Source: Candidatus Altiarchaeota archaeon
GTDB taxonomy: Archaea > Altiarchaeota > Altiarchaeia > IMC4 > SCGC-AAA252-I15
Direction: 5' to 3'
Length of the DNA: 64,000 nt
Assembly (NCBI GenBank): GCA_043800255.1
Contig: JAZDNF010000009.1
Location: 96,001 to 160,000 of the forward strand
This document shows, in pieces, positions 2,943 through 41,985 of the stretch. Position 1 is the first letter of the stretch, and the number at the start of each line of letters is the position of its first letter. The translations under genes were made by a program, and so were the position numbers. The notes under the pieces are model-generated. The model had not been told where the DNA came from, did no database searches, and saw only the letters and a list, made by a program, of their open reading frames with translations.

Positions 2943-2948
2943 TCGTTA

Positions 2949-21265: not shown

Positions 21266-22374
21266 TGATGGACGTTTCCGAGTTTTCTGAGGGCAGCGTT
21301 CGGCTGAAGATCCCCGCAGTCGAGAGGCTCCTTAGGAAGAACCCGGTCTTCTTTAATCCTCTTATGGAGTTGAACCGTGATATCTCTGTAGCCTCCTGCA
21401 GACTTCTTAAACCAAATGACTTCTGCGACGCTCTCGCGGGGAGCGGGGCGAGGGGCTTCCGTGTCGCCAGGGAGGCTGGCGTCGACGTCACCTTGGTTGA
21501 CATGAATTCCACGGCTTGTGAATTCATGGAGGAGAACGCGAAACTTAACAAGTTAAAGGTGAATGTCGTCAACGATGACTGCACTCATTTCTTGTCGGGG
21601 AGGAAGTTCGATTATATCGACGTTGACCCGTTCGGCCCTCCGGTCCGCTATCTGGACTCTGCCATCCGAGCCTGCAGGAAGAGGTCTTTTCTCGGCGTCG
21701 CCGCCACGGACACCAGCGCTCTCTGCGGCACCTATCCGCGGGCGTGCAAACGGAAGTATGATTCCGTCTCTCTCCGGACTGACTGTTATGATGAGCTTGG
21801 TCTTCGCATCCTTCTCGGTTTCATCGCCCGGTCTGCGGTCCGTTATGATTATGGCGTCTCGTTTCTCTTTTCCCACTGTACGAGGCATTATTTTAGGACT
21901 TACGCGGAGTTGAACCGCGGCCGTTCTCATGTTAGAAAATCTCAGGACAGTCTCGGCTTCGTCCAGCATTGTTTCAAGTGCCTTTGGAGAGGTTACAGGA
22001 AACTTGAGGAGCTGGAGCAAACGTGCAAGTGTGGTTCTCCTCTCTCGACTGCAGGCCCCTTATGGACTGCCGAATTCGCCGACCCTGTCTTCTGCGGGAA
22101 CCTCATAGGGGAGCTTGAGTCCGGGTCTTATGGCACAAAGTCCTCAGCTGTGAAGCTCATCAGCGCAGTCTCCGATGAGCAGCCTATCCTCACACCCTAT
22201 TATGACCTGCACAAGATAGCTAAGCGGGAGAGGAAGCCTGCACCAGCCCGGGACGCCTTCTTCAAGAAGGTAACCGGTGGAGGCCACAGGATAACGCGGA
22301 CTCATTTCTCAGACCTCGGCATCAGGTCTGACGCTGACGTGGACGAGATTGCAGGATATCTGGGCAAACTTTAG
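21265..22374 (+). CDS. trm1: tRNA (guanine26-N2)-dimethyltransferase
   Basis: VFFNPLMELNRDIS, LAGSGARG, DVDPFG, ATDTSALCG, CxxC..CxCG, GPLW, RTHFS. Confidence 0.93.
   Translation: MMDVSEFSEGSVRLKIPAVERLLRKNPVFFNPLMELNRDISVASCRLLKPNDFCDALAGSGARGFRVAREAGVDVTLVDMNSTACEFMEENAKLNKLKVNVVNDDCTHFLSGRKFDYIDVDPFGPPVRYLDSAIRACRKRSFLGVAATDTSALCGTYPRACKRKYDSVSLRTDCYDELGLRILLGFIARSAVRYDYGVSFLFSHCTRHYFRTYAELNRGRSHVRKSQDSLGFVQHCFKCLWRGYRKLEELEQTCKCGSPLSTAGPLWTAEFADPVFCGNLIGELESGSYGTKSSAVKLISAVSDEQPILTPYYDLHKIAKRERKPAPARDAFFKKVTGGGHRITRTHFSDLGIRSDADVDEIAGYLGKL
22236..22353 (+). repeat. Direct repeat copy 1A: trm1 3' end (118 bp)
   Basis: Ungapped match to 23907-24024, 19 mismatches by hand count. Confidence 0.9.
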
Positions 22375-23036
22375 CTCATGCGCATCGCTTTTCTTATCTT
22401 TCCGAGGTTGAAGTTGGGATGGGTTCTATTCTTGTCTTTGATCATCTTCAGTTCATTCAGCGCCATCTCCGGGCTTTTATCCCATTTTTTGAGGCTGCTT
22501 TTTATGACCGTCCAGTCAAATGTGGGGGAGTTGTAGTTCACGATGATATTGTATATGTCTTCCATATCCTGGGATTTCGCATGGTATACCAGGTCTGCTG
22601 AGCTTCTCTCCAGGAGCATCTTCGTCGCCAGCAGGTCCTCAACTCTCGGGAGTGGTAGGCTGTCCAGTATCTGGCTGCGGTCCCATAGTTCCGAGTCGAA
22701 TTCCAGGGTGTCGCATACGCCTCCAACCCACAGTTCAACGTAGTTTTTTATCTCTTCTTCGAGGGGCGACTTGGAGAACAGGTATCTCTTGAAATGGTAT
22801 TCAGTGTTCTCTCCCTCGAAATGCCAGCCGATCCTCCTCAGGTTGTTTTTGATCTTCCGCAGAACGTCTTTTGGTACATCCTCTCTGATGACGAAGTCGA
22901 TGTCCTTGGTCGACCGGGGTTGGACTAGGGCGGACACGGCCACGCCGCCTATGATGACGTGTTCTATGTGGAATCTTTTGAGTATCCTTGATATCCGTAT
23001 GGCTGTCTCCTGCGCTTTGTCGGCTTCGATTTTCAT
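22371..23036 (-). CDS. Pol-beta-fold nucleotidyltransferase (AbiEii/DUF6036-like putative toxin)
   Basis: IIGGVAV..PRSTKDIDF signature, EDLLATK, DMEDI. Confidence 0.75.
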   Translation of the reverse strand: MKIEADKAQETAIRISRILKRFHIEHVIIGGVAVSALVQPRSTKDIDFVIREDVPKDVLRKIKNNLRRIGWHFEGENTEYHFKRYLFSKSPLEEEIKNYVELWVGGVCDTLEFDSELWDRSQILDSLPLPRVEDLLATKMLLERSSADLVYHAKSQDMEDIYNIIVNYNSPTFDWTVIKSSLKKWDKSPEMALNELKMIKDKNRTHPNFNLGKIRKAMRMS

Positions 23037-23806
23037 AGGATGCCAAGCTTTTCTTTTATCGGTTTTATCAGCTCTGGGGGGAGGCCCATCCTCTTCTTAT
23101 CGGCATGAGAGAGGTCTGGGAGGTTCGGCGCATATGGTCTCAGCCCGGATAGGATGCCGATGATGAAGTCTTTGACGTGCCATTTTTCTGATCTTTCGAT
23201 CACGTATGCCCAGTCGGTGTTTTGTTCCCGGAGCATGATGGAGAGCAGGTCTTCTAGGGGGAGCTGGCCTTTTTGTACTAGGTGCGCGTATGCGAGTATC
23301 GCGTCTTCGCGTTCGGGTATTCGGACGCCTCCGTAGTCTGTTTTTTTGTAGAAGAGTTTGTATTCTCTGACGTAGTCGGCCTTTTTGTCCTTGGTTTGTT
23401 TTTCTGCGAATACAAAGACGCGCTCGTCGTATCTGTCGAACCCGTACAGTTTCGTCAGAAAGGGCCCGACGAGGACCGTGTCTATCCCCTCTCTTCTGAA
23501 TTTGCCCGACATCTCCAGCAGCCTGTCTTCGATCCCTGTTGTCTGTTCTTTTGAGGTTTCGATGAGTTCTTTGAATTTTCGCATGAATTTTGAGCCCATC
23601 ACCGGCTGGTATTTGGGGTATAGGCCTTCTCCGACGGGCTCTACGAGGCCTGCTTCTGCGAGGGTGTCTATCGCAGTTGCCGCCGTCGACGTGCTTGTCT
23701 TCGTCTGCGACGCGTAGTCTTTCTTGTGCATCGGCTGCGGGTGCTCTACCATGTACGCCAGGATCTTTACCGTGGGTTTTTCCCCTAATATGTCGGAAAC
23801 CTGCAT
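23033..23806 (-). CDS. wHTH + degenerate NTase-fold protein (AbiEi-like putative antitoxin/regulator)
   Basis: Start likely ATG 23806 (MQVSDILG); N-terminal winged HTH (TLAEAGLVE); 4-bp overlap with the NTase gene. Confidence 0.65.
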   Translation of the reverse strand: MQVSDILGEKPTVKILAYMVEHPQPMHKKDYASQTKTSTSTAATAIDTLAEAGLVEPVGEGLYPKYQPVMGSKFMRKFKELIETSKEQTTGIEDRLLEMSGKFRREGIDTVLVGPFLTKLYGFDRYDERVFVFAEKQTKDKKADYVREYKLFYKKTDYGGVRIPEREDAILAYAHLVQKGQLPLEDLLSIMLREQNTDWAYVIERSEKWHVKDFIIGILSGLRPYAPNLPDLSHADKKRMGLPPELIKPIKEKLGIL

Positions 23807-23834
23807 CTTGCGTATATACATAGGGTGAGGCGAG

Positions 23835-23877
23835 TATTTAAATGTTTCGATTTTAAGAAACAATTGTTTTCGAACAT
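23835..23877 (-). promoter_or_regulatory. TATA box plus inverted-repeat operator upstream of the AbiE-like pair
   Basis: TTTAAATA on the minus strand about 30 nt before ATG 23806; palindrome AAACAATTGTTT (23858-23869) inside ATGTTTCGA...TCGAACAT. Confidence 0.5.
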
Positions 23878-23906
23878 GAAAACATTCTCGGACAGCGTAA
23901 GAAGAG

Positions 23907-24036
23907 GCCTGCACCAGCCCGGAACACCTTCTTCAAGAAGGTAACGGATGGCGGCTACAAGATAACGCGAACACACTTCTCAGACTTGGGCATACGATGC
24001 GACGCCGATGTGGACGAGATTGCAAAACTAATCTGA
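23907..24036 (+). pseudogene. Direct repeat copy 1B: orphan trm1 3' fragment
   Basis: Translates PAPARNTFFKKVTDGGYKITRTHFSDLGIRCDADVDEIAKLI*, the Trm1 C-terminus. Confidence 0.9.
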
Positions 24037-24058: not shown

Positions 24059-24406
24059 TTGGCTGAGACTGCGGGCAAGGGGGGCGAAAAGTATAAGGTC
24101 AAAATCTGTCCCAGGTGCGATGAGAAGAATTCTCCGAGTGTTGATGTCTGCCAGAAGTGCGGGACCACATTGGACATAAAAACCCTCCTGGAAGAGGATG
24201 AAAGAAGAAACACTACTATGGGCGTGTTGTCGACGATACTCTCGGATGACCGGGTTAAGGAGGCGATAGCTGCCAGCATAAAATCGCAGGAAGAACACGC
24301 CCGAAAAACCCAACAGGAGACAATATCAGACCAACTCATCAAACTACTCAACCCCGGAGCATACGACCTACAACTGACAACACAACCCACAAAAACCAAA
24401 AAATGA
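24059..24406 (+). pseudogene. C-terminal zinc-ribbon remnant of an archaeal tyrosine integrase
   Basis: KVKICPRCDEKNSPSVDVCQKCGTTLD followed by a helical tail resembles the C-terminal extension of archaeal site-specific integrases; no catalytic R-H-R-Y domain upstream. Confidence 0.55.
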
Positions 24407-24505: not shown

Positions 24506-24664
24506 ATGAAACTCCAAGAATCAAAGGGCAAGTACAGCATATTCCTACCGACAAGAATAGTCGAAGGATTTAGTTGGAAGAAAGGCCAAGAGCTTGAGGT
24601 TAAGATACTTGGTAAAGATAGATTAGAAATTAGGAAAAGACCGCTTAGAACTCAAGAGAGTTAA
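24506..24664 (+). CDS. AbrB/MazE/SpoVT-family DNA-binding protein (52 aa, absent from the ORF track)
   Basis: Hand translation MKLQESKGKYSIFLPTRIVEGFSWKKGQELEVKILGKDRLEIRKRPLRTQES*; TATA-like TATATAAATA upstream. Confidence 0.75.
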   Translation: MKLQESKGKYSIFLPTRIVEGFSWKKGQELEVKILGKDRLEIRKRPLRTQES

Positions 24665-24739
24665 ATAAACAGATTTTAATTAAAGTATTCTCTAATCTTT
24701 TAAGGATATAGTTTTTTTATAACACTTGGAGGGGTTGGA

Positions 24740-25732
24740 TTGGCAAAGGAATTTAAGAAAAAAACTGATTTTTCAGTCCCTAGAGGTTCAACAGAAGTAG
24801 ATTCTGATAAATGGGAGGATGACACATATGCTTCAAAAATATCCTATGAGATTACCCAACAAGGACGAGAAGGGATAAGAGTATTGTCAGCTAAAAAAAC
24901 AAACTATACTCCTCATTATGGAGTATGGTTAGACAAAAAAATAGATTATTCTAATTGGTATAAGTGGTTCTCTTCTGCTTTTAAAAAATTAGCCAGAATA
25001 TTTGGAAAAAAGATAGAAACAGCGGAAGATATAGTCCAAAGATATGAAAAGGAATTGCAAGATATGTCAAAAACAATCACTGAACTTACTTTAAAATATG
25101 AAAGAGCAAAAAACGAATTGGAACAAAATAAAAAAGACTTTGAATTAGCAAGAAAATTAGTTGACAATATTGATGTGTATGAGAAAGGATTAGAGGAAAT
25201 ACGAGATGCTATTAATAAGTCATATGATGAGAATTCAAGACTAGAGGGATTAATAAAACAAAAAATCATCGAGAATAGATGGGTTCTTGGACTAGACTGT
25301 GAAGTTCAAGCCAAAGAAAGACGTATAGACAATCAGACTTCACTTGATTTGCATATTAAAACTGATTTAGGAGAAGATAGAGTTTTTGAATTCAAAAGTC
25401 CGAATATCCGTCCTTTCTTTAAAGAGAATCAGCAGGGTAGGTTTCACATAAATTCTGAAATTGCCGAGGGATTAAATCAATTAATGATATATCTAACAAA
25501 AATTGATTTTTGGGGTAGAATCAAAGAGGGTGGCATTTATGGAGTGACAAAACCTGCAGGGGTTGTAATAACGGGCTATAAACTTCCGGAGGAAGATATT
25601 GATGTTCTTAAAACATGGAATTTTCATTTAAGACCACATATAAGATTCGTTACTTACGATGAACTCATAAGAAGTGCTGAAAATAATCTGGACATTATTA
25701 GAAAAGCCAGGCAATTGGACAAGGTAGATTAA
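24740..25732 (+). CDS. sduA: Shedu-like (DUF4263) anti-viral nuclease with an N-terminal coiled-coil/sensor region
   Basis: ENRWVLG, D..(VF)EFKSP, EGLNQL..Y, P.GVVITG, FVTYDELI pattern; TTG start after GGAGGGGT. Confidence 0.75.
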   Translation: MAKEFKKKTDFSVPRGSTEVDSDKWEDDTYASKISYEITQQGREGIRVLSAKKTNYTPHYGVWLDKKIDYSNWYKWFSSAFKKLARIFGKKIETAEDIVQRYEKELQDMSKTITELTLKYERAKNELEQNKKDFELARKLVDNIDVYEKGLEEIRDAINKSYDENSRLEGLIKQKIIENRWVLGLDCEVQAKERRIDNQTSLDLHIKTDLGEDRVFEFKSPNIRPFFKENQQGRFHINSEIAEGLNQLMIYLTKIDFWGRIKEGGIYGVTKPAGVVITGYKLPEEDIDVLKTWNFHLRPHIRFVTYDELIRSAENNLDIIRKARQLDKVD

Positions 25733-26961
25733 TGATTGAAGATAAATCTAAAATTGGGGTTCTCTGTAGAAAATTCATTGAGAATTATGATGAGTATACG
25801 AAAGTAGATTTCAAGTCTACGCTTGATTTATCCTCCTCTGAGAATAAAGCCGAACTCTGTAAATTGATTTGTGCGATTGGTAACTCAAATAGCCCTAAAT
25901 ATGATAACATTGGCTATATAATCCTAGGTGCTAAACGTGGTGAACTCATTGGCGGTATTAATGAACTAGCTAAGGATTCTACCTCAGCTAGTATCCGTCA
26001 GATTGTTGCTTCTTTTTTAGATTATCCCGTAAAGTTTGAGATTCTGGCCTTTAAGGATGAGGTAAAAGGGTTATGGGGAGCTATTGAAATCTTCGATGAC
26101 CCCCAGAATCGACCTCTTAAATTCAAGCGTTCTGTTGGGACATTGGGCATAAAAAAAGATGATGCATTCATCCGGGATGGTGACTCAATTAGACTAGCAA
26201 ATCCTCGGGAGATAGAAGAAATTACTAGTCGAAAATTCACATTAAGAGTTCCGTCACTCAATATTGCCTTCTTTGATGGTAAGGATTACACTAAATTCCT
26301 ACTCGTTGAGCCAGAAGTAGTAAAAATTATTGAAAAAAAGATGCCAGAAACACCTCTTCTAAAGCCGTCTCCAATGATAGAGCGATTCTCTGGGCTATCA
26401 GAGACAGTTAATAGGATTAATGCTGTTTGTGCCATTATCCCTAGACCATTATGGGTGGGTAAAAGCCAAAGCGAATATGAAGCTGAGATGGGAGAATATA
26501 GAGAGTTAATGCGACAACTGCCAATCCTCACTTTGGTTTTGAGGAATGACGGAACAGCTCGTGCGAGAGATATTGATGTAACAATAAGTTTTCCACGAGA
26601 GATTGAAATTATGTTGGAGGACGATATTCCAGATGAACCATCTAAACCTGGGCGTTCTCTATTACTGAAACCGTCATATACTCCCTTACCCGACTTTCTT
26701 GGTATTAGCCCCACATTAGAAGAACTAGATGAAGAAAAGTTACTGTCATTTTATGTTAAAACGCTAAAGCATACAAATAAAGCAGAGTGTAGATTTGCCA
26801 TAACAAATGAAACTCCTGAGGGGAATTATTCTATTAAGTATGAGGTTCATTGTGAGGAGGATATCAAACCCACAAAGGGAGAGTTAAAGCTAATTGTTAA
26901 AAAGAAAATTAGAGAAGAAATTAAATGGATTTCAGATGGGGGGATACACTTAAGTAAATGA
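25732..26961 (+). CDS. Schlafen/AlbA_2-domain protein with a C-terminal Ig-like beta domain
   Basis: EYTKVDFK...ELCKLICAIGNS...GYIILG...FIRDGDS (AlbA_2); LVLRNDGTARARDIDVTISFP beta-sandwich; TAATG coupling to the Shedu gene. Confidence 0.75.
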   Translation: MIEDKSKIGVLCRKFIENYDEYTKVDFKSTLDLSSSENKAELCKLICAIGNSNSPKYDNIGYIILGAKRGELIGGINELAKDSTSASIRQIVASFLDYPVKFEILAFKDEVKGLWGAIEIFDDPQNRPLKFKRSVGTLGIKKDDAFIRDGDSIRLANPREIEEITSRKFTLRVPSLNIAFFDGKDYTKFLLVEPEVVKIIEKKMPETPLLKPSPMIERFSGLSETVNRINAVCAIIPRPLWVGKSQSEYEAEMGEYRELMRQLPILTLVLRNDGTARARDIDVTISFPREIEIMLEDDIPDEPSKPGRSLLLKPSYTPLPDFLGISPTLEELDEEKLLSFYVKTLKHTNKAECRFAITNETPEGNYSIKYEVHCEEDIKPTKGELKLIVKKKIREEIKWISDGGIHLSK

Positions 26962-27022: not shown

Positions 27023-27101
27023 AATCCTTCTGTGGAAGGGCAACGTCCTTGGGTGGGGTCTTGTTGCAGTCGGAATTGCGAACTACGTAAGAATCTGGTC
27101 G
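27023..27101 (+). repeat. Direct repeat copy 2A (79 bp; fragment of a small membrane-protein gene)
   Basis: Ungapped match to 27688-27766, 16 mismatches; both read GWGL(V/I)AVGIANYVRIWS. Confidence 0.85.
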
Positions 27102-27105
27102 GGGA

Positions 27106-27639
27106 TTAAGGAGATGAAGCATGAGGCATCCGTTTATTTAGATTTTTCATCTCCTCTTTTGCCGTGTCAACAAGCAGATCATTTACCGTAACACTCATAA
27201 CTATGGAGATAAATATAACCATCAATAATCCATGGATAGTAGCCCTCTTGTCTAGAGGTGTCGGAAGGTCATCAATCAATATCTGTGTCATTATGACAGC
27301 CACTAATAGTGTCATTGGGATTATGTAAATGAACATTATCTTCAAGATTAGGTTTTTTTCCCAATACACCCAATACTCATTCTTCATACCCCCCAGCATC
27401 TTGTGGGTAAACATGACACAGAAAACAAAGCAATCTACAATATAAATCGATACAAAGATGAAAGTACTTATCAAAATAGATATTATAAGTTGAGAACTAT
27501 CTAGTGGTTTGAAACCAAAGAATGCACCGTGCAGAACATATCCCACCGCAACAAATCCAAAGATTATAAAAGGTATGGAAATCAGCTTGTCTGGTTCTTT
27601 AAATACCTCCTGGAAATTTTTGAGAGATTCGTCCCACAT
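27106..27639 (-). CDS. Membrane protein (about 4 TM)
   Basis: Start likely ATG 27639 (MWDESLK); four hydrophobic segments; sits exactly between repeats 2A and 2B. Confidence 0.65.
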   Translation of the reverse strand: MWDESLKNFQEVFKEPDKLISIPFIIFGFVAVGYVLHGAFFGFKPLDSSQLIISILISTFIFVSIYIVDCFVFCVMFTHKMLGGMKNEYWVYWEKNLILKIMFIYIIPMTLLVAVIMTQILIDDLPTPLDKRATIHGLLMVIFISIVMSVTVNDLLVDTAKEEMKNLNKRMPHASSP

Positions 27640-27687
27640 AGTATATACTGAATATTTCGTGTATAAAAAACTCTTCACACATACGAT

Positions 27688-27766
27688 AATCCTATTGTTG
27701 AAAGACAATGTCATCGGCTGGGGTCTTATCGCCGTCGGGATTGCGAACTATGTGAGGATCTGGTCG
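27688..27766 (+). repeat. Direct repeat copy 2B
   Basis: See copy 2A. Confidence 0.85.
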
Positions 27767-27805
27767 AGAACTAAGATGGAAAAATCTGGAGATTGAGGAT
27801 TAGAG

Positions 27806-28968: not shown

Positions 28969-29439
28969 TTGGTGGTGATGTTGAAAAAAATAGGGTTAAT
29001 TCTGTTGGTAATTGGGGTAGTGTTAACTAGTGGTTGTATTACTGAGGAAACCCAACAGTCAACCACGATTTCACACATCTCAACGACTTCAATAGTGGTA
29101 ACTACGACATCAACTCTTTCATCTATAAATTATTCTATAAGAGATTACATAGATATTGTACTCCAACAGCAAGATGAGATTGAGAACGATTTAGGCATTT
29201 TAATACAGGTTTCTGAAGACAAGTCAAAATACTGGGATGGCAGTTGGTATGTGAACATACTATCGCCTCCTGAAGAAGGGCCAATGTGCATAAGTTGTTG
29301 TGATCAGGGATATGCCGTTTTGACACCTGAGGGTGAGATTGAGAAGATATTCTTAGAGTATCGTGACTGCAATAATATCGAATGTGACGCTTACAACTGT
29401 GAGAGGTTACCCCGATTCAAAGAACCGTGGGACATCTGA
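28969..29439 (+). CDS. Putative lipoprotein/exported protein
   Basis: KKIGLILLVIGVVLTSGC lipobox-like signal, Thr-rich linker. Confidence 0.65.
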   Translation: MVVMLKKIGLILLVIGVVLTSGCITEETQQSTTISHISTTSIVVTTTSTLSSINYSIRDYIDIVLQQQDEIENDLGILIQVSEDKSKYWDGSWYVNILSPPEEGPMCISCCDQGYAVLTPEGEIEKIFLEYRDCNNIECDAYNCERLPRFKEPWDI

Positions 29440-29444
29440 TTAAA

Positions 29445-32400
29445 ATGAAAAATGCTAGATTAATCATTCTACTTTTTGCCCTACTGTCTGTTTTTTTGAG
29501 TGTACAAACCATATCTGTTAAAGATAATCAATTTGACATCATAACTGTAAAGTTTCCAGATCCCACAATCAGTAATCGTGATAGTTTCGATGTTATTGAG
29601 ATAGAAGGGCTTGAGTTTACGGTTGATACTGGGAAGCCTATGCTTCCTATGAAGAGTATCTCAATTCTCATTCCTGATTATGAGATTACTGATGTAGAGT
29701 TGATTTACTTTGAAAACATTTCCATTGACGGAAAATTCCAAATTTTTCCAGTCCAACCTTCTCAGCCGATATCCTTGAGTAATGTGACGATAAATTTTAC
29801 AGAGCCGGATTCATCTGTTTACAATTCAAATGAAATCTATCCTTCAGAGATTTTCAAAATTGTTGGGGAGAATAAGATTAGAGACCATAGGATATTGAAT
29901 CTTATTGTGTTCCCAATTCAATACATCCCCCTTGAGGGAAAAGCGTTCTTTTTGAACAACCTAACCTTTAGAATATCCTATTCAAAGCACATTTCAATTG
30001 CAAATTCAATACAAGACCCTGATTCAGAGTACTTTGATAATATTGTAAAGAATCTAGTGATTAATCCTGAAAAATTATCTGAAATAAGAGAAGCAGATAC
30101 AAATAATAAAGTCTCCATACAAGGTTTACCAAGTCCTACATACTGTCCTGGACTATCGTCTTGGACGGACTCAGATTTAGAATATATAATAATCACGGAT
30201 TCAGAGTTTGTGTCCGAGTTCCAAACATTGGCAGATTGGAAAACGCAGAAGGGAGTTCCTGCTAAGGTTGTATCGATTGACACGATTACAAACACCTTAA
30301 GTTGTAATGGATCAGACACTCAGGAAAAAATTAGGAATTTCATAAAGGATGTTTATGATGGTTGGAGTATTGATTGGGTGCTCCTTGGCGGGGATATCGA
30401 TGTAGTTCCACATAGAGGAGGATACGGAAAAGTCCAGCCATATATAGACAATACAATAGCAACAGATCTATACTATGCTGATTTGGATAGAACTTGGAAC
30501 AACGATGGAGATTCAATTTTTGGAGAGATCGAGGACAACATCAGCCTGACATACGAGGTTTTCATAGGCAGGGCACCTGTAAGTTCCCTGTCGGATGTTC
30601 GAGTTTTCATAAACAAGACATTAACTTATGAAAAAAGTCCACCAACAGATTATGAGAAAACCGCATTGTTCTTGGCAGAATGGCTTGATGCATCTACTAA
30701 TTCTGGATTAGGAAAGGATATAATCGATTCTGACTATTTTCCTGATGATTTTTCGATTACAAAACTATATGAGGCAAATGGCACTGAAAACCATACAAGT
30801 GTTGTACAGAATCTAAACCAAGGGTATGGAATTGTGAATCACATGGGTCACTCTAATCCAACAGTTATGGGTATTGGTTCTGGTAGCCTCTCAACCTCTG
30901 ATATGAACTCCTTAACCAACTCTCCAAAATATTCTGTATTATACTCAATGGGTTGTTTACCTAATGCCTTTGATTGTAGTTCTTCAAACTACAATATCTA
31001 TTGTTTAAGTGATTCTATATCTGAAAAATGGATTCTTAATTCTAATGGTGGAGGAGTTGCTTTCATAGGAAACACACGGTATGGTTGGTTCGCCCCGGCA
31101 AGTCCAGGTCAGGGTACCTCAGAAAAATATGACCAAAAGTTCTTCAATTCGTTATTCAATAAAGATTTGTATCATATAGGCCAAACATTAGCCGATTCAA
31201 AAGCAGATTATGTATCGTATTCAAATTCATATGGATCATACAGATGGGTTCAATTCGAGCTAAACTTGCTCGGGGATCCCGAATTAGAAATATGGACTGA
31301 CAACCCCCAAAACTTTTCAGTTTCTCATGTAAATTCTATTACCTCTCAATCCAGTTCTTTTTCTGTGCATGTTGAGAACTTAAGTGGGAGTCCAATACAA
31401 AGTGCAAGAGTCACATTGTGGAAGTCGAATGATGTCTATGAATCAGCTTTGACAGGTTCCAGTGGAAATGTCAGCTTTTCTATCTCACCACATAGTACTG
31501 GAAATATCACGGTGACAGTCACAAAACACAATTTCATACCCTATCAGGGCATAATTGTAGTCTCTAGCACGGGCGCATCTGATACTAATCCACCCATTAT
31601 TACGCTAAATTCTCCTTTTAGTAGTGCTACAGATACAGACGGGAATATAACATTCTCCTATACCCCTACTGATGACTCAACAATACTAAATTGCTCCTTG
31701 TATGGAAATTTCACGGGCTCATGGGCTTTGAATCAGACAGATACAGCAATAACGAAGAATGTACAGGATACTTTCAATGTATTTAGTTTACCCAATGGCC
31801 GTTATATCTGGAATGTGGGATGTTATGATAACTACAGCAATCGTGGTTTTGCAACATCAAACCGTACCTTAATTGTTGGATCTTCTGGGGGCATAATAAG
31901 GTTTAATGCATTTATGATAGATGATGACAGATTGGGTGCTAGTTATGGTGATAACAATAGCCAAGTTAATCCTGGCGAATGGATAGAGCTAAATGTCCAG
32001 TTGGCGAACACTCAGAGCATTGACGCATACAGTGTTAATGCGACAATAAGCACATTGGACCCCTACATCTGGATATACGATAATTTCGAGACCTTCTCTG
32101 ATATAACTGCAGGATCTACAAGGTATTCGGACTCAGATTATGATTTCTATGTGTCATCATTGGCTCCGGGTAATCATTGGGTTGTTTTTGAAATCAATAT
32201 CAGCGACTCCACCGGAAACCATTGGACTAACACTTTTACACTTCAGATAATCGACAATGTCGCACCGGCAATATCGAATGTTATGATAGAGCCGAGACGA
32301 CCGACATACGGGGGGCCAATTAATGTCAGTACTACTGTCTATGACGGAAGCGAATTATCAAGTGTTACTTATCATTTCCGTTCATTTATATTTGGGTCAG

Positions 32401-35400
32401 CTACCAAGAACCTTTATGATGATGGATTACATAATGATGGTTTGGCAAATGATAGTGTTTTCGGAAATTATGAAACATTTTATTTCGGAAATCCTGACCT
32501 AAATTTTACATTAAAAATAAATGCAATTGATATTTTCAATAATTCAGTTATATCCTCTATCGATTTTACAACTAAACCCTTTAACATTACCTCAAATGTT
32601 CTAATCGTTGACGATGACGATGGTCAATCCTATGAAGGCTACTATACCGATGCCTTGGATGCCATTGGCTATTCCTACGATGTTTGGAATGTAGATTTTC
32701 GCGGTTCTCTAAAAAGTGAAGTTATAGACAATTATACTGATGGAATAGTAATCTGGTTCACTGGAAATGATTGGGTAACAACATTGACGACTGATGACCA
32801 GAACAATCTCAAAAGATACCTGAACAGAGGGGGAAAATTATTCATATCGGGACAGGATATTGGGTATGACATTGGAACAACAACATTTTTCTCGAAGTAT
32901 CTACACGGGAAATATGAGTCCGATGATAGCAATTCCTACAAGATCAATGGAATTTCAGGGGATTCAATTACAAATGGGATGAGTATAGGAATATCGGGTG
33001 GGGATGGTGCTAACAATCAATATTATCCTAGTATCGTATCAGGTATAAATGGAGCAGAAACAATCGTGTATTATGATATCTCTCCAACTGTTCTCCCACT
33101 TGTAATAAATAAGACAAGTAGGGCAAAATTTGCTAGGGAGAACATAAGTATAATATCCTTCGAAGAGTATAGAGATATTTTTGACATAATAGCCGTAAAA
33201 TTGGAGGGCAATAACATTGAGGAAGAGCCAGTGGGAATAGCACAACCTCCTTCTCCACCATTCTGCACAGTAGAGGTCGAATCGTACCCTCTCGCTATAG
33301 GCTATGGTAAAACGGGAACAATTTACTGGAATATATCGTGTTCGACAAGTCATACCAATACCCATTATTGCAAACCTAGTTACGGTTCCACTTGTGATCC
33401 TCCATATACTTACCAATATGCTACATTTAATACCCAAACCGGACCTAGTGGCAAGTATAGTGATACCCTAACATTCGATGAACAGGGAACTTGGTCGTTC
33501 TTCATCCACGTGATTAACGATAGCTTTAATTACTATTCAGATGCTTACACAATTGAGGTAACAGGTTGCGTGCCGTCTGTCATCAGCTATCCTTCGTCTA
33601 CCAATAGTGGAGAAACAAAGACTATTACTTGGAATAATGGTTGCAATTCAACCCATACAAATGTGCACTATTGTACCCCCGGCTTTGATTGTGATAGTAA
33701 TACAAACACCTACGAAGCCGTAACCACTATGCAATCAGGATCTAGTGGGGTATATAGTGCTAATTTAACTCTAAATGAAGTTGGCACTTGGGAGTTTTTT
33801 GTCCACACGACAAGCAATTCCACAGACTATTTCTCGCGAGAGTATTCCTTCAACGTCACTGGAGAGATTAACACATCAGCAGGAATCCGTGCAGACGAGG
33901 GATCGTACAAGGTCGTGTATCTTGCGTTCGGGTTTGAGGCGATAAACAATTCCAATGATAGAACAAATTTACTTAACAAGAGCATTTCTTGGTTACTGAA
34001 CACAACCAGAGAGATTGCTTATGATGATGGAAGTTACGGATCATCACTATGGGCTGATTCGAGTACTGAGCTTTCTGTAAAAATGGACCCATTTAAATAC
34101 CCATTTAATTTAACAGCAATAAGTTATTATTTTTCTGTATCATCTCAACCTGGAACCCTTGAGTTACATATCCGGGATGACAATGGAGCAAACGGGGGTC
34201 CTAGCTCAGATTTGTTAGATCCCATAATCATAAATGCAACTTCAGGATGGAATACAATAAATCTTTCAGAAAATTCTATTCTAATAACTGCTGGTAGTTT
34301 TTACGTTGGCTATAGACCCAATGTGTCTTACGGTGTGGGTATAATGGCGGATACAAGCCCACCTATACATAATAGATCCTTTGCTGGGACTTCTATGTAC
34401 CCAGGTTATAATATTGCAATTAGAGCCAATGGCGTTATAATGGCAGATATTTCACCACCAAATATAACGATAAATTATCCACTTGATAACAACACGTATG
34501 TTACAAGCTCAGTAACAATTAATTATACGGTTGAAGATAGTTCTAACATCTCCAACTGTTCGATATATACAAACCGAACTGGAAATTGGTTAATTGGTAA
34601 TACAAGTTCAACAATCAATGCAACTGGAGAAAATATCTTTGTGCTTGTAAATTTAACGAATGGAACATATACGTGGAGCATCAAGTGTATTGATGATGTC
34701 GAGAATGTTGGCTATGCGCTTCAGAATTACACTTTCACGATAAGTCCATATTCAACTGCACAAATATCATCCTTCGGAAGTTACGGATATACTGATGACA
34801 AATTTGAGTACCCCGGTGATATTGATATCGATGGCTTAGGGAATATATACGTGGCTGGTGGAGGTAAGAACAAAATACAGATTTTCTACTCAAATGGTTC
34901 GTTAAAACAAGCCTTTGGATCCTATGGCAACGAAAGTGGTCAATTCAGCAACCCTAGGGGGATTTCAGTAACTGACGATAGGATATATATTGCAGATACG
35001 TTTAACCACAGGATTCAGGTTTTCAATCTATCTGGTACTTTTCTGTTTAGTTTTGGAAGTTATGGGGCTGGCGATACACAATTCAACTATCCCTATTCAA
35101 TTGTTGTGTCTGGCAATAGGATATATGTAACAGATACACACCACTGGAAAGTGAAGATTTTCGATCTTTCAGGTAACTTATTAACTAGTTTTCAGGGGGT
35201 AACCTCAGATGCTTACATAACCGCGCCTGAGGGTATAGCTGTGAGTGCGAATAAAATTTTTGTTAGCAGCTCTTACCAAGATAACTATGTACCAGGTCAT
35301 GATATTGACGTTTTTAACTTATCTGGTTCCTACTTATACAGTTTTGGTAATCATGGAAATCAAACTGGACAATTTGATAGGCCAGGAGCATTAGTGATTG

Positions 35401-37292
35401 ATAATAATAGCAGATTGTATGTTCTGGATTGCGATAATAATCGAATACAATTATTCAACTTAGATGGCACCCATATATTATCATTCGGACGTTATGGTTC
35501 AAATCCTGAACAATTTAACAGCTTGACTGGCATCGGTGTTGATGATGATGGGGGATTATATGTTACTGATAACAACTATAAAGTCCAGATATTTGACGTA
35601 TTTGCTTGGAGAGATACAACACCCCCATCGACACCTACTCTAAATGATCCTGGAAGCGCGGATGATGATGGCACATACACCCTAGGTTGGTCCGAGGCGA
35701 GCGATGATGTTAGGATTGCAATTTATGAAATTGGTGAGATAGCGAGTAGTACACCCACATTTCTAAGTGATAACTCAGAGGGTTCGAATAATTGGACGGT
35801 TGAAGGATATTGGAATCAAACTTTGTTGACATATCACTCTGGTCAAAAGAGTTATTGGGCATCTGCCAATGGAAATGGGTCATTGTGCTCTTCAACAAGC
35901 ATTCTAGGAGCATGCTATAATAGTAGCACTTCCTCGTATATGACTCAAGAAATTGATTTAAGTTCCTGCACTAATGCCACTCTAAAGTATTGGTACTATT
36001 ACCAGATTGAATATCAGGCAAATTGTGTCTGGGACAGAGCTTACGTCCAAATATCCACAAATAACCTTTCATACACCAATCTTGTTAATCCTTTCTGTGG
36101 CGAGGGGGGAGCACAATCTGACACATCAGGGAGTGCATATGGTTTGGCTGAAACATGGAATGAGGAAACAGGAATAAATATCAGTAATTACTGTGGAAAT
36201 GAAAATGTTTATATACGCTTTGGATTTACATCTGACTCTAGTGTAGAACATTCAGGTTTCTTCGTTGATGACATAGTTGTGGAAAGTGACGACTGGTTGT
36301 TTATTGGAAACACGACAGGGACAAACTACACATTCTATGGTAAACAACCCAATAGTTACTACTACAGAGTGAGGGCTCTAGACACAAGTGAAAATGAGGG
36401 GAACTGGAGTAATGTAGAGAACATAACAGTAACTCAAACAGGGACCACGACAACAGTAACTACAACAATACCTGACAATGACCCCCCAGACATAACTCTG
36501 ATCTCACCATCAGATAACTACAACGATAGAGATGGAAATGTGTTTTTTGTTTACACAGCCAGCGATAGATCCACATTAAATTGTTCCATTTTCACAGACA
36601 TCACTGGACCTTTCACATCAGTTTTGGATGACACAACTATTTTAAATAACAGTAGGAACAGCTTCTTCTTACAGAACATATCCGATGGCGAATACAGCTG
36701 GAGTATCTCATGTACAGATAATCACGGCAACTTGAATTTAAAGCAGCCATACAGAATCCTAAGAGTGTCAAAGATCTCGAATAAGACACACTACACGTCT
36801 CTAAATGTAACTACGAATACGACTGCAAGAGTGAATTCCTCAGAAACAAACACCATCATCGACTTAACCACCTCAGAAGATATTACTGATTCGTTTGTTT
36901 CTATCTCACTATCCTCAAATAATACTGCAAATGCATCCCTCACCCTAATTGGTCTTAATAAATATGTCACAATAGATGCAAGTCCAGAATTAGAGATGTG
37001 TCTATCCTCAGCACTAATCAAGGTTTATTATACTGATAGTGAAGTTCAAAATGCAGGCATAAATGAAACTGATTTAGCAATCTACTGGTTTAACGAAACC
37101 GAATCAGAATGGCAAAGACTAAATAGCAATACAATGGGGTGGGTGTATGGAACAGGCGTAGAAACAGATTTAAATTATGTGTGGGCCAATGTATCGCACT
37201 TCAGCGATTATACAATAGCGGAAGGTGTAGAGACACAATCTATACCACTACTATCAGGTTGGAACCTGATTTCTATTCCGCTGGTTGCTTAG
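29445..37292 (+). CDS. Giant secreted C25 (gingipain-family) cysteine peptidase with Ig-like, choice-of-anchor-X-like, NHL-repeat, jelly-roll and FN3 modules
   Basis: Signal peptide (MKNARLIILL), propeptide (GKPMLP), WKTQKG, VLLGGD, TDLYYADLD, NHMGHS and SMGC dyad, NLLGDP; LYDDGLHNDG; F.NP.GI...IYIADT.NHRIQVF repeats; YYYRVRA. Confidence 0.85.
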   Translation: MKNARLIILLFALLSVFLSVQTISVKDNQFDIITVKFPDPTISNRDSFDVIEIEGLEFTVDTGKPMLPMKSISILIPDYEITDVELIYFENISIDGKFQIFPVQPSQPISLSNVTINFTEPDSSVYNSNEIYPSEIFKIVGENKIRDHRILNLIVFPIQYIPLEGKAFFLNNLTFRISYSKHISIANSIQDPDSEYFDNIVKNLVINPEKLSEIREADTNNKVSIQGLPSPTYCPGLSSWTDSDLEYIIITDSEFVSEFQTLADWKTQKGVPAKVVSIDTITNTLSCNGSDTQEKIRNFIKDVYDGWSIDWVLLGGDIDVVPHRGGYGKVQPYIDNTIATDLYYADLDRTWNNDGDSIFGEIEDNISLTYEVFIGRAPVSSLSDVRVFINKTLTYEKSPPTDYEKTALFLAEWLDASTNSGLGKDIIDSDYFPDDFSITKLYEANGTENHTSVVQNLNQGYGIVNHMGHSNPTVMGIGSGSLSTSDMNSLTNSPKYSVLYSMGCLPNAFDCSSSNYNIYCLSDSISEKWILNSNGGGVAFIGNTRYGWFAPASPGQGTSEKYDQKFFNSLFNKDLYHIGQTLADSKADYVSYSNSYGSYRWVQFELNLLGDPELEIWTDNPQNFSVSHVNSITSQSSSFSVHVENLSGSPIQSARVTLWKSNDVYESALTGSSGNVSFSISPHSTGNITVTVTKHNFIPYQGIIVVSSTGASDTNPPIITLNSPFSSATDTDGNITFSYTPTDDSTILNCSLYGNFTGSWALNQTDTAITKNVQDTFNVFSLPNGRYIWNVGCYDNYSNRGFATSNRTLIVGSSGGIIRFNAFMIDDDRLGASYGDNNSQVNPGEWIELNVQLANTQSIDAYSVNATISTLDPYIWIYDNFETFSDITAGSTRYSDSDYDFYVSSLAPGNHWVVFEINISDSTGNHWTNTFTLQIIDNVAPAISNVMIEPRRPTYGGPINVSTTVYDGSELSSVTYHFRSFIFGSATKNLYDDGLHNDGLANDSVFGNYETFYFGNPDLNFTLKINAIDIFNNSVISSIDFTTKPFNITSNVLIVDDDDGQSYEGYYTDALDAIGYSYDVWNVDFRGSLKSEVIDNYTDGIVIWFTGNDWVTTLTTDDQNNLKRYLNRGGKLFISGQDIGYDIGTTTFFSKYLHGKYESDDSNSYKINGISGDSITNGMSIGISGGDGANNQYYPSIVSGINGAETIVYYDISPTVLPLVINKTSRAKFARENISIISFEEYRDIFDIIAVKLEGNNIEEEPVGIAQPPSPPFCTVEVESYPLAIGYGKTGTIYWNISCSTSHTNTHYCKPSYGSTCDPPYTYQYATFNTQTGPSGKYSDTLTFDEQGTWSFFIHVINDSFNYYSDAYTIEVTGCVPSVISYPSSTNSGETKTITWNNGCNSTHTNVHYCTPGFDCDSNTNTYEAVTTMQSGSSGVYSANLTLNEVGTWEFFVHTTSNSTDYFSREYSFNVTGEINTSAGIRADEGSYKVVYLAFGFEAINNSNDRTNLLNKSISWLLNTTREIAYDDGSYGSSLWADSSTELSVKMDPFKYPFNLTAISYYFSVSSQPGTLELHIRDDNGANGGPSSDLLDPIIINATSGWNTINLSENSILITAGSFYVGYRPNVSYGVGIMADTSPPIHNRSFAGTSMYPGYNIAIRANGVIMADISPPNITINYPLDNNTYVTSSVTINYTVEDSSNISNCSIYTNRTGNWLIGNTSSTINATGENIFVLVNLTNGTYTWSIKCIDDVENVGYALQNYTFTISPYSTAQISSFGSYGYTDDKFEYPGDIDIDGLGNIYVAGGGKNKIQIFYSNGSLKQAFGSYGNESGQFSNPRGISVTDDRIYIADTFNHRIQVFNLSGTFLFSFGSYGAGDTQFNYPYSIVVSGNRIYVTDTHHWKVKIFDLSGNLLTSFQGVTSDAYITAPEGIAVSANKIFVSSSYQDNYVPGHDIDVFNLSGSYLYSFGNHGNQTGQFDRPGALVIDNNSRLYVLDCDNNRIQLFNLDGTHILSFGRYGSNPEQFNSLTGIGVDDDGGLYVTDNNYKVQIFDVFAWRDTTPPSTPTLNDPGSADDDGTYTLGWSEASDDVRIAIYEIGEIASSTPTFLSDNSEGSNNWTVEGYWNQTLLTYHSGQKSYWASANGNGSLCSSTSILGACYNSSTSSYMTQEIDLSSCTNATLKYWYYYQIEYQANCVWDRAYVQISTNNLSYTNLVNPFCGEGGAQSDTSGSAYGLAETWNEETGINISNYCGNENVYIRFGFTSDSSVEHSGFFVDDIVVESDDWLFIGNTTGTNYTFYGKQPNSYYYRVRALDTSENEGNWSNVENITVTQTGTTTTVTTTIPDNDPPDITLISPSDNYNDRDGNVFFVYTASDRSTLNCSIFTDITGPFTSVLDDTTILNNSRNSFFLQNISDGEYSWSISCTDNHGNLNLKQPYRILRVSKISNKTHYTSLNVTTNTTARVNSSETNTIIDLTTSEDITDSFVSISLSSNNTANASLTLIGLNKYVTIDASPELEMCLSSALIKVYYTDSEVQNAGINETDLAIYWFNETESEWQRLNSNTMGWVYGTGVETDLNYVWANVSHFSDYTIAEGVETQSIPLLSGWNLISIPLVA

Positions 37293-40127: not shown

Positions 40128-40403
40128 ATCTTGTCAGGAACTTATTTTTTTGGACGTTATCTGCTTTTTCCCCCGAATATAATTGTGAATTTTTCTTTTT
40201 CTTGCCCTTTTCCTTTCTTCGGCTTCAAAATATAAAAACCGCATACTCTTCCGCAACCCAACAATCTAACATTCCCCAACAGCTCCATTATCCCACTGGC
40301 TGCGGCTCAGACGGCGAAATCCACTATCACACAGGAAACCAAACCCGCACGGACAACCAAAAAATCAGCGAAAACAAAATAGAAAAACCATGGTTTATTG
40401 TAT

Positions 40404-40559
40404 GTTATTTAAAATGGGATTCAATGTTCTATTATGGACTCTGCTCACATTCAAATCGCTGAGGTGGAGGGTATCTCAGACCTACTGCAAAAGCTTTTCT
40501 GGAAGCAGCCTGCGATGGCTGGGAAGGCTGTGGAGTTTTTGGAGTATGTGAGGCAGTGG
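40404..40559 (+). pseudogene. Direct repeat copy 3A: promoter plus first 42 codons of the wHTH gene at 41632
   Basis: 156-bp ungapped match to 41602-41757; first 59 bp identical, 21 mismatches thereafter. Confidence 0.9.
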
Positions 40560-40636: not shown

Positions 40637-40924
40637 TTGTCGGTCATGCAAACTCACATTGACTCTCCACAGCAGCTTCGGGATTTCATAGATCACCGGA
40701 TGGATGAGGCTGTTAGGGATGCTCGAAGGACTGCTGAGAGGGTTGCTAGGACTGAGGCGAAGCTTGCTGAATTCGAACTTCTGTATTCTGCTGTTGTCGA
40801 TGGAGGGGAGAGTAGGAAGAATCTCGAACTGCTGAGAAGGGACAGGGAAACCCGGTGGAAGAAGGCTTTGAAAAAGGCTGGCGGCAATGAGGATGAGGCC
40901 TTGCTCATCTACGACGAGTTTTAG
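40637..40924 (+). CDS. Small helical hypothetical protein (start perhaps 40646)
   Basis: 95-aa ORF convergent with and overlapping the PIN gene. Confidence 0.55.
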   Translation: MSVMQTHIDSPQQLRDFIDHRMDEAVRDARRTAERVARTEAKLAEFELLYSAVVDGGESRKNLELLRRDRETRWKKALKKAGGNEDEALLIYDEF

Positions 40925-41456
40925 ACCTTCTGCCGTATGTTTGCCTGAAGAAGTCTTTGATTTTTTTGTCCATAGTGGGGAATTCGCCGACTCCCATGCC
41001 CATGAGTTTGCAGGCTTGTTTGAAGTGGTTGTTGGTTGAGTAGACGAGGTTGATGCGTTCCTTTTTGAAGTCGGCGATGATGTAACAGTCTGGGGGGTGC
41101 ATTTCTATGTTGTTTTTCTTGCACAGGTTGAAGAGTTCTCTGACCGTTTCTCTGTTAGTGGAATCCCTTTCTATGACCTGGATTTTGTTGTTTTTTAGGA
41201 ATTCGGTCAGCTCTTGGGTAGCTTCCTTTAGGCTGCGTCCTTTCTTTTGTAGGATGTGGGTGGCTTCTTTGTCGGGTTCTAGGGATATGCGATGTACGAA
41301 AGCGGTGTCTCCGAGTATTTGGTCACCTTCGTTGGAGAAGAATCGTGGATTCTCTATGAGGTCGACTAGGATGTTAGTGTCCAATCCTATTCTGCGTTCT
41401 CCTTGGAATCTGGCTGTTCTCTTCAGCCGGTAGATTTGTTCCCTCTTTTCGCCCAT
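40905..41456 (-). CDS. PIN-domain (VapC-like) nuclease
   Basis: GLDTNILV, E, HPPDCYIIA and STNNHF acidic pattern; start likely ATG 41456. Confidence 0.7.
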   Translation of the reverse strand: MGEKREQIYRLKRTARFQGERRIGLDTNILVDLIENPRFFSNEGDQILGDTAFVHRISLEPDKEATHILQKKGRSLKEATQELTEFLKNNKIQVIERDSTNRETVRELFNLCKKNNIEMHPPDCYIIADFKKERINLVYSTNNHFKQACKLMGMGVGEFPTMDKKIKDFFRQTYGRRSKTRRR

Positions 41457-41631
41457 TGCAGAAGATATTGAGAGGGGAGAGGTATAAGAGCGGTATCTGG
41501 TTAGGTAGTAGCTTCCATAGCCCACCCCATTAACCAACCACCATGCTCTCAGCTTCCCCACCATTTCTGTCAATTGGGGCAGGACGCCGAAGAAATTTCA
41601 CGTTATTTAAAATGGGATTCAATGTTCTATT

Positions 41632-41985
41632 ATGGACTCTGCTCACATTCAAATCGCTGAAGTGGAGGGTGTCGCAGACCTCCTTCAGAGGTTGTTCTGG
41701 AAGCAGCCGCAGATGGCGGGGAAAGCTGTCGAGTTCTTGGATTACATCAGACAGTGGGGGCGGAGTGAGACGCCCTATAGGGTGGACCAGTGGGAGAACT
41801 ACTGTGAGAGGCATGGGATAACGCAGAGCAAATACCATAACATGCTGAAAAGGCTGAAAAGGGCGGGGATGATAGAGAAAAAATACAATAAGACGAAGAA
41901 GACGCACGAGCTGTTCCTGTCCGAAGGATTCTCAGAACGGCTGGAGAGTATGACATCAGCGTGGGACAACTTCAGAAAGAATTAG
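41632..41985 (+). CDS. Conserved winged-helix protein
   Basis: YHNMLKRLKRAGMIEK...LSEGFSERL; its 5' end is repeat copy 3B (41602-41757). Confidence 0.75.
   Translation: MDSAHIQIAEVEGVADLLQRLFWKQPQMAGKAVEFLDYIRQWGRSETPYRVDQWENYCERHGITQSKYHNMLKRLKRAGMIEKKYNKTKKTHELFLSEGFSERLESMTSAWDNFRKN

Follow-up and report, generated by a model that had tools for sequence, protein, structure and literature searches.

A Shedu-type nuclease gene and a Schlafen-type gene overlap on a low-GC island of an archaeal genome and are probably two separate defense genes in one operon

INTRODUCTION

When two defense-type genes overlap by a single base, do they encode one system or two? This question is raised by a stretch of 64,000 nucleotides (nt) from a Candidatus Altiarchaeota archaeon (GenBank assembly GCA_043800255.1, contig JAZDNF010000009.1, positions 96,001 to 160,000 of the forward strand), which we call the window. 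In it, an open reading frame (ORF) with a DUF4263-pattern nuclease domain, ORF A, runs directly into ORF B, which has a Schlafen/AlbA_2 domain. A reading of the letters without database searches, called here the sequence-only reading, had proposed that the two form a two-layer antiviral system in which a DNA-cutting and a translation-arresting effector act together. We found that each protein, by domain, motif, and fold, belongs to a published single-gene defense family and that the pair is almost never seen elsewhere. The probable reading, which we favor, is therefore that each of the two genes encodes a self-contained defense of one protein, that they share an operon within a horizontally acquired island, and that they are not a conserved unit.

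RESULTS

ORF A and ORF B overlap by one base

The two genes and their junction lie as follows.

24740..25732, + strand: ORF A, predicted Type-1 Shedu (SduA-like) nuclease, 330 amino acids (aa), TTG start (Pfam, PADLOC, motifs, and fold matches)
25730..25734, + strand: TAATG stop/start overlap of ORF A and ORF B (TAA at 25730-25732, ATG at 25732-25734, one base in common)
25732..26961, + strand: ORF B, predicted prokaryotic Schlafen (pSlfn) with a C-terminal sensor-like module, 409 aa, ATG start (Pfam, fold, and module matches)

We found that the start of ORF B is preceded by a weak AGGT only, with no obvious start signal of its own. Two elements can be read by eye 5' of the ORF A TTG codon.

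24712..24732, + strand: TATA-like AT-rich stretch TTTTTTTATAA (24712-24722) and GGAGG (24728-24732)

A sigma-70 scan gave 12 sites where 9.6 were expected. For an archaeon, this promoter and terminator scan was uninformative. The sequence-only reading had joined the genes through the TAATG overlap and supposed that they are coexpressed. The overlap is as described, and from it and the weak AGGT we concluded that ORF A and ORF B are very probably cotranscribed.

ORF A is a Shedu nuclease by domain, motifs, and fold

ORF A divides into three parts.

24779..25006, + strand: N-terminal domain, residues ~14-89, candidate nucleic-acid-binding sensor (four strands plus a helix in the AlphaFold2 model)
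25013..25234, + strand: coiled-coil hairpin linker, residues ~92-165 (AlphaFold2 helices 95-138 and 141-163)
25253..25669, + strand: DUF4263/SduA_C PD-(D/E)xK nuclease domain, residues 172-310 (Pfam)
25244-25246 (E169), 25346-25348 (D203), 25388-25390 (E217), 25394-25396 (K219), and 25478-25480 (Q247), + strand: nuclease motif codons (alignment)

PF14082 (SduA_C) matched residues 172-310 of ORF A with an E value of 9.9e-9; the score was 36 bits (35.7 in the whole-genome search), and the Pfam cut-off is 27. Four PADLOC SduA models matched as well, the best at E 1.7e-7. NCBIfam gave no meaningful match for ORF A, ORF B, or a small MazE-like ORF upstream of them, and direct sequence searches of the PDB returned chance or coiled-coil matches only. 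For Bacillus cereus Shedu, Gu et al. (bioRxiv) list the PD-(D/E)xK motifs I (E), II (D), III (ExK), and IV (Q); all of them are intact in ORF A. We aligned ORF A with 15 relatives (31-51% identity), all of which have the same whole architecture. E169, D203, E217, and K219 were kept in 16 of the 16 sequences and Q247 in 15.

The AlphaFold2 model of ORF A has a mean predicted local distance difference test (pLDDT) score of 82.5. Its top fold matches with VIA-align were 8ps4_A (Z 11.5, root-mean-square deviation [rmsd] 5.0, 168 residues aligned), 8ti9_E (Z 10.7), and 8ti8_A (Z 10.0). Foldseek likewise placed Escherichia coli SduA and B. cereus Shedu at the top (E 9.3e-7 to 8e-4). These matches and the motifs agree with the DUF4263 call made from the letters, and we concluded that ORF A is by domain, motifs, and fold a Shedu/SduA nuclease, with a predicted nuclease activity.

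The N-terminal domain, which had been left unrecognized by the sequence-only reading, is modeled with four strands (residues 17-22, 30-38, 44-52, and 62-65) and a helix (residues 70-87), and it is conserved in most of the 15 relatives. It aligns with Pur-alpha at modest scores: Pur-alpha 3n8b_B matched over the full domain length (Z 6.3, rmsd 4.7, 71 aligned), and Pur-alpha 3nm7_A gave Z 6.1 (rmsd 4.6, 73 aligned). The Pur-alpha fold is Whirly-like. The modeled domain is compatible with the sPC4/Whirly-type N-terminal domain of Type 1A Shedu, without proving that identity. For the linker, weak coiled-coil Pfam matches at residues ~88-167 coincide with the modeled helices, in line with the coiled coil that had been seen by eye.

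ORF A resembles the Type 1 Shedu enzymes of B. cereus B4264 (SduA, 8ti8/8ti9) and E. coli (SduA, 8ps4/8ps5) in its C-terminal DUF4263 nuclease with motifs I-IV, its N-terminal domain in the place of a regulatory domain, its helical linker, and the frequent embedding of its relatives in restriction-modification (R-M) operons, as published for Shedu. It differs from the solved enzymes in that identity is only 12-18% and that the N-terminal domain resembles Pur-alpha at Z ~6 only. The linker of ORF A is a long two-helix coiled-coil hairpin, whereas that of B. cereus Shedu is described as a short four-helix spiral (Gu et al.). The subfamily to which ORF A belongs is found mainly in DPANN-type and other archaeal metagenome-assembled genomes (MAGs).

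ORF B is a prokaryotic Schlafen by domain, motif, and fold

25792..26199, + strand: Schlafen/AlbA_2 nuclease domain of ORF B, residues 21-156 (Pfam; E21-x4-D26-x-K28 at 25792-25815)

PF04326 (SLFN_AlbA_2) matched residues 21-156 of ORF B (E 5.8e-7, 30.5 bits, where 25.3 is the cut-off) and covered profile positions 1-117 of 118. Perez Taboada et al. (PMC13056530) recognize a pSlfn by a PF04326 domain of >100 residues, and the domain of ORF B is longer than that. The same paper gives the catalytic motif of prokaryotic Schlafens as Ex4(E/D)xK. We found that the active-site motif of ORF B is E21-YTKV-D26-F-K28, with K44, C47-A48, and N51-S52 as further pattern residues, which is the E...DFK...K..CA..NS pattern from which the AlbA_2 domain had first been called. 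E21, D/E26, and K28 were each kept in 20 of 22 aligned relatives of ORF B, and the Ex4(E/D)xK pattern was present in 139 of the 148 deep-search hits, among the matches listed.

The AlphaFold2 model of ORF B is confident for residues 1-167 only. With Foldseek, ORF B matched SLFN13 (5yd0, E 3.7e-4), SAMD9 (7ksp and 9o0d, the latter being the SAMD9 tRNase), SLFN14 (9jr9), SLFN5 (7cux), and the uncharacterized protein DIP2311 (3lmm), which was the best fold match. Bacterial AlbA_2 structures were also found for residues 1-167. No PADLOC model matched ORF B, and Pfam showed no helix-turn-helix (HTH) or other DNA-binding domain in it. Schlafen domains like that of ORF B bear other tails elsewhere, including TPR, SH3, and AbiTii. 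A search with ORF B over 401 genomes of the phylum of genome G063 gave no hit, and a scan of viral contigs found no relative. Taken together, these data indicate that ORF B is a prokaryotic Schlafen by domain, motif, and fold, with a predicted RNase activity.

The C-terminal module of ORF B is found on other effectors

26239..26940, + strand: C-terminal module of ORF B, residues ~170-403, beta-rich, candidate viral-protein sensor (sequence and ESM-Atlas structure matches)

An exhaustive HMMER search with ORF B gave 253 hits at E <= 1e-3 and set residues ~170-403 apart as a separable module. One protein (P0022) consists of the module alone (41% identity), and another (P0023) carries it behind an unrelated membrane-anchored N terminus (42% identity). 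By sequence, the module also stands behind PIN_4 in four proteins, with P0127 as a PIN-headed example, and behind DUF4062 in one (P0075). In ESM-Atlas, structure matches to the module at template modeling (TM) scores of 0.50-0.61 fell in clusters with AlbA_2, PIN_4, TIR, DUF4062, and Mrr_cat_2; the TIR and Mrr_cat_2 heads are linked to the module by structure match only. Pfam had no family for residues 170-409 even at E 10, and the module profile returned nothing useful from the PDB sequences. A tblastn search of plasmids gave one partial match to the module, a stand-alone hypothetical gene without a Pfam domain that lies between HipA toxin-antitoxin pairs on a Novosphingobium plasmid.

As a separate observation, the module-bearing proteins, which include P0022, P0023, P0075, P0110, P0127, P0139, and P0152, share the invariant residues N, G, K-H, Y, and G.

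The sequence-only reading had described this region as an Ig-like sandwich that senses a viral protein. A beta-rich C-terminal module is indeed present. Its Ig-like fold, however, is weakly supported and was not confirmed: pLDDT is below 50 for residues 168-409, and the hints are an ESM-Atlas match at TM 0.43 to a DUF11/CARDB cluster and an NPCBM_assoc match (E 0.02) in 1 of 10 module-bearing proteins. The sensing role draws instead on a parallel with RorSlfn5 of Raoultella ornithinolytica, described in PMC13056530 as a single-gene defense protein that joins a Schlafen domain to a C-terminal Ig-like sensor, senses a phage tail-assembly chaperone, and cuts tRNA, with E15A/D20A as its dead mutant. 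ORF B likewise fuses a Schlafen domain to a noncatalytic, sensor-like domain. Compared by description, not by sequence, the two are alike in a catalytic pair near the N terminus (E15/D20 in RorSlfn5, E21/D26 in ORF B), in a nonenzymatic C-terminal domain of about equal size, in the overall size of the protein (43.1 kDa for RorSlfn5, 409 aa for ORF B), and in a setting like that of a defense island. They differ in that the host of ORF B is an archaeon, the Ig-like fold of its module is not confirmed, and its gene overlaps a Shedu gene.

A second parallel comes from DUF4062, which in the single-gene systems Swarozyc (10.64898/2026.05.01.722283) and Evangelion (10.64898/2026.06.25.731849) is described as a TIR-like NADase effector, accompanied by C-terminal regions with an auxiliary or sensor role. 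By sequence alignment, P0075 bears the C-terminal module of ORF B behind a DUF4062 head, which supports the view that the module is a sensor to which different effectors can be attached; the effector predicted there is an NADase, whereas that predicted for ORF B is an RNase. The occurrence of the module behind several effector domains is the pattern expected of self-contained sensor-effector defense proteins. The module may be an unnamed viral-protein sensor that serves Schlafen, PIN, DUF4062-NADase, TIR, and Mrr effectors in bacteria and archaea.

The pair is almost never found elsewhere

To ask how often the two genes occur together, we collected 49 loci that encode relatives of ORF A (38 metagenomic and 11 from genomes), mostly from DPANN-type and other archaeal MAGs, with one Saccharibacteria and one Anaerolineales MAG. 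In 48 of the 49, an ORF for the relative could be recovered; these gave 41 distinct proteins and hence 41 nonredundant loci. Neighbors were examined with Pfam (20 representative and 91 further ones) and with a local AlbA_2 profile run over every ORF.

We found no homolog of ORF B in any of the 49 loci by phmmer, and its C-terminal module was likewise absent from all 49. An AlbA_2 neighbor was present in one of the 41 nonredundant loci (L023). Among 10 genomes that carry an ORF A relative, 8 had no PF04326 match; in G070 such a match was present and was not adjacent to the ORF A relative. As a wider baseline, we took 401 genomes of another phylum, 26 of which had Shedu matches, at 29 places; 3 places below the Pfam cut-off were dropped. 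At none of the remaining 26 did the local profile find an AlbA_2 domain in flanks of up to 5 kb. Finally, SduA_C was fused to none of 108 ORF B-like proteins (108 of the 121 hits of at least 250 aa, among the 148 matches listed). The neighborhood of Shedu genes thus shows almost no co-occurrence of the pair, and a two-layer system that evolved as a unit, the central proposal of the sequence-only reading, is not borne out by these counts.

The commonest neighbors were R-M genes; at least 11 of the 41 nonredundant loci have them coupled to the relative of ORF A. They encode Eco57I/MmeI-like enzymes or an N6_N4 methylase with ResIII. This coupling matches the figure of Gu et al. (bioRxiv), who place 602 of 5,499 Shedu genes inside R-M systems. 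Regulators lie 3' of some ORF A relatives (HTH and IrrE in L026, HTH in L032).

Two further arrangements were seen among these loci. In L004, L008, L041, and L042, a conserved string of genes for, in this order, an Eco57I/MmeI-like enzyme, a ~308-aa protein (weak MauJ match), and a ~225-aa PDDEXK_1 nuclease lies 5' of the Shedu-like gene, which suggests a recurrent R-M-type cassette that carries the ORF A Shedu subfamily. In L023, a 234-aa ORF without a Pfam family (2450-3154, + strand) begins 8 nt after the AlbA_2 gene, and a gene for an HTH protein comes next. The product of the 234-aa ORF might be a sensor supplied by a gene of its own.

A low-GC island has ORF A and ORF B at its left end

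From ~24.1 to ~40.5 kb, the GC content of the window falls to 30-42%, against ~50-55% on either side, and ORF A and ORF B stand at the left end of this stretch. GC content at third codon positions (GC3) is 0.24 in ORF A and 0.31 in ORF B, compared with ~0.6 in the flanking Trm1 and DUF362 genes. In the host genome (~1.75 Mb, 93% complete, with the window on contig 7), SduA_C and AlbA_2 are each matched exactly once. Searches of 40 related genomes and of the other 60 genomes of the phylum did not find ORF B. The low GC3 of both genes and the failure to find ORF B in related genomes point to horizontal acquisition. Among the island ORFs scanned there was no integrase or transposase, and the window holds no tRNA gene.

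DISCUSSION

We favor the reading that two separate defense genes share an operon. Each of the two proteins has its own sensor-like part, the N-terminal domain in ORF A and the C-terminal module in ORF B. By analogy with the solved Shedu enzymes, ORF A would assemble through its nuclease core and cut invading DNA once its N-terminal domain, which is Pur-alpha/Whirly-like and probably binds nucleic acid, senses a nucleic-acid signal linked to infection. By analogy with RorSlfn5, binding of a viral protein to the module of ORF B would trigger tRNA cleavage and thereby arrest translation. Because of the TAATG overlap, the two genes are probably transcribed and translated together, so the shared operon would give the cell both defenses at once, with neither gene needing the other. 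Single-gene action is the norm in both families: Gu et al. (bioRxiv) describe Shedu, and PMC13056530 describes pSlfns, as single-gene systems in surveys that include archaea. The sequence-only reading had likewise taken Shedu to be normally a single-gene defense, with swappable N-terminal sensors, and Schlafen domains to be tRNA/rRNA nucleases.

Several observations weigh against two separate genes. A functional pair, too, would show a one-base overlap in which ORF B lacks an obvious start signal of its own. L023 has the same gene order: the 3' neighbor of its Shedu gene, a 224-aa AlbA_2-only gene that keeps ExxxxExK, overlaps it by 20 nt. On the contig of G065 that carries the ORF A relative, which ends at ~29154, an AlbA_2 gene lies ~8 kb away, at 37136. 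The local AlbA_2 profile recovered 4 of 4 controls, the weakest at only 15 bits, so a very divergent AlbA_2 domain could be missed. For four of the 41 loci, the sequence does not extend downstream of the Shedu gene, and the searches covered MAGs, which are incomplete. The co-occurrence counts were made from the Shedu side, and the neighbors of the proteins closest to ORF B (P0002-P0004 and P0022-P0037) lie outside them.

These points bear on the strongest alternative, a genuine two-effector system in which a Shedu DNase and a Schlafen RNase coevolved, so that one senses and both fire or the RNase is an abortive backup. We consider this unlikely. In its favor are the overlap on the same strand with a weak separate ribosome-binding site for ORF B, and the recurrence of the gene order with overlapping genes in L023. 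Two-component Shedu also exists in principle: in KELShedu (PMC12577705), KELA, a 12.6-kDa double-stranded-DNA (dsDNA)-binding protein encoded upstream, is reported to be needed for defense. A layered DNase with a backup RNase has been discussed for the Schlafen and Shedu add-ons of BREX loci, where Schlafen RNases are considered as a "backup" beside DNA-targeting systems (PMC12839542). In contrast, the pairing counts (1 of 41 loci, 8 of 10 genomes without AlbA_2, 0 of 26 other Shedu loci, and 0 of 108 fusions) speak against such a system. The AlbA_2 protein of L023 is not an ortholog of ORF B: it gave no phmmer match and lacks the fused C-terminal module. Sensor-like domains in both ORF A and ORF B argue in the same direction. 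KELShedu is alike in that a DUF4263 nuclease sits in a tight bicistronic operon, but its partner is encoded upstream and is a small dsDNA-binding protein, whereas the downstream gene in the window encodes a 409-aa Schlafen with a sensor-like module of its own, and the MazE-like ORF upstream of ORF A is not conserved in the family. A prediction of the ORF A-ORF B complex (score 0.00, mark 0.32) returned no verdict and is evidence neither way.

A more specific form of this idea, in which the Shedu-then-Schlafen operon is a coupled module whose first line targets DNA and whose second, abortive line cuts tRNA, with both lines made at a fixed ratio and cross-regulated, is a long shot. The overlap and L023 keep the coupled-system reading alive at about that low level. 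The reading of the C-terminal module as a sensor family is more likely to hold than the coupled Shedu-Schlafen module.

AlbA_2 domains have long been annotated as nucleic-acid-binding or regulatory. ORF B might be inactive as a nuclease and instead be a nucleic-acid-binding or regulatory protein that controls ORF A or the island. Its best fold match is the uncharacterized DIP2311, regulators lie 3' of the ORF A relatives in L026 and L032, and PMC13056530 leaves room for nonimmune roles, with 30.4% of pSlfn genes not near known defense genes. We regard a regulatory ORF B as improbable: the Ex4DxK motif is intact and conserved, Pfam found no HTH or other DNA-binding domain, and the module is common to PIN, DUF4062 NADase, TIR, and Mrr effectors, not to regulators.

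Least probable is that the pair serves the mobile island itself, by addiction or exclusion of competitors, and not antiviral defense of the host; the low-GC setting, with an AbiEii-like nucleotidyltransferase pair, a MazE-like ORF, and a PIN gene nearby, would suit this, but the island ORFs scanned include no integrase or transposase and no tRNA gene was seen, neither ORF A nor ORF B has a conserved antitoxin-like partner, and direct experimental anti-phage evidence is reported for both families (PMC13056530; Gu et al., bioRxiv).

ORF A and ORF B are new and divergent archaeal members of two published single-gene families and very probably share an operon on a mobile island. This is of value for annotation. 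Finding them together is not surprising, given that defense genes occur in clusters and that Shedu genes are habitually located next to other systems. In our literature searches, we found no Shedu or Schlafen tested from an archaeon and no Shedu-Schlafen pair, in keeping with the sequence-only reading, which knew of no described archaeal pairing; the supplements of the surveys may list such architectures. Either gene is thus a reasonable first archaeal test case. Should the module be a single sensor family, triggers identified for one class of effectors may help to predict those of the others. If the pair were coupled after all, it would offer a compact model for immunity layered at the DNA and RNA levels; it would also be the first Shedu system with two effectors and the first such system in archaea.

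Other features of the window

Upstream of ORF A, the small MazE-like ORF lies as follows.

24506..24664, + strand: 52-aa MazE/AbrB-like ORF, 75 nt upstream of ORF A (PF04014 MazE_antitoxin, 21.7 bits, below the cut-off of 24.7)

We found no homolog of it upstream of the ORF A relatives in the 49 loci (best tblastn E 1.2). This ORF is context, not a conserved partner, and it was rejected as a KELA-like partner of ORF A on the same ground.

The 52-aa ORF, the AbiEii-like nucleotidyltransferase pair, and a zinc-ribbon ORF lie just left of the island. The pair (22371-23914, - strand) consists of two overlapping genes, for a 221-aa AbiEii-like nucleotidyltransferase (22.8 bits, cut-off 22.5) and a 293-aa HTH-containing partner. 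It is a possible AbiE/type IV toxin-antitoxin-like pair, has a host-like GC content, and stands at the left edge of the island. The 115-aa zinc-ribbon ORF (24059-24406, + strand) is at the GC transition and has a weak, sub-threshold match to OapC, an origin-associated protein (18.8 bits against 23).

The remaining content of the island comprises small membrane and zinc-ribbon proteins, a peptidase-C25-like surface protein of 2,621 aa, a MarR-like ORF, and a PIN gene. The ORF of the surface protein (29427-37292, + strand) has peptidase C25 (gingipain-like) propeptide, catalytic, and Ig-like domains and takes up nearly half of the island.

Two direct repeats were also found. An 88-nt repeat (27023-27110 and 27688-27775, 78% identity) brackets a 202-aa membrane-protein gene (27106-27714, - strand), and each copy encodes the peptide GWGL[VI]AVGIANYVRIWS within a small ORF on the + strand. 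A 163-nt repeat (40397-40559 and 41595-41757, 85% identity) has one copy on either side of the PIN-domain gene (40905-41573, - strand), at the island's right edge, and may mark an insertion boundary.

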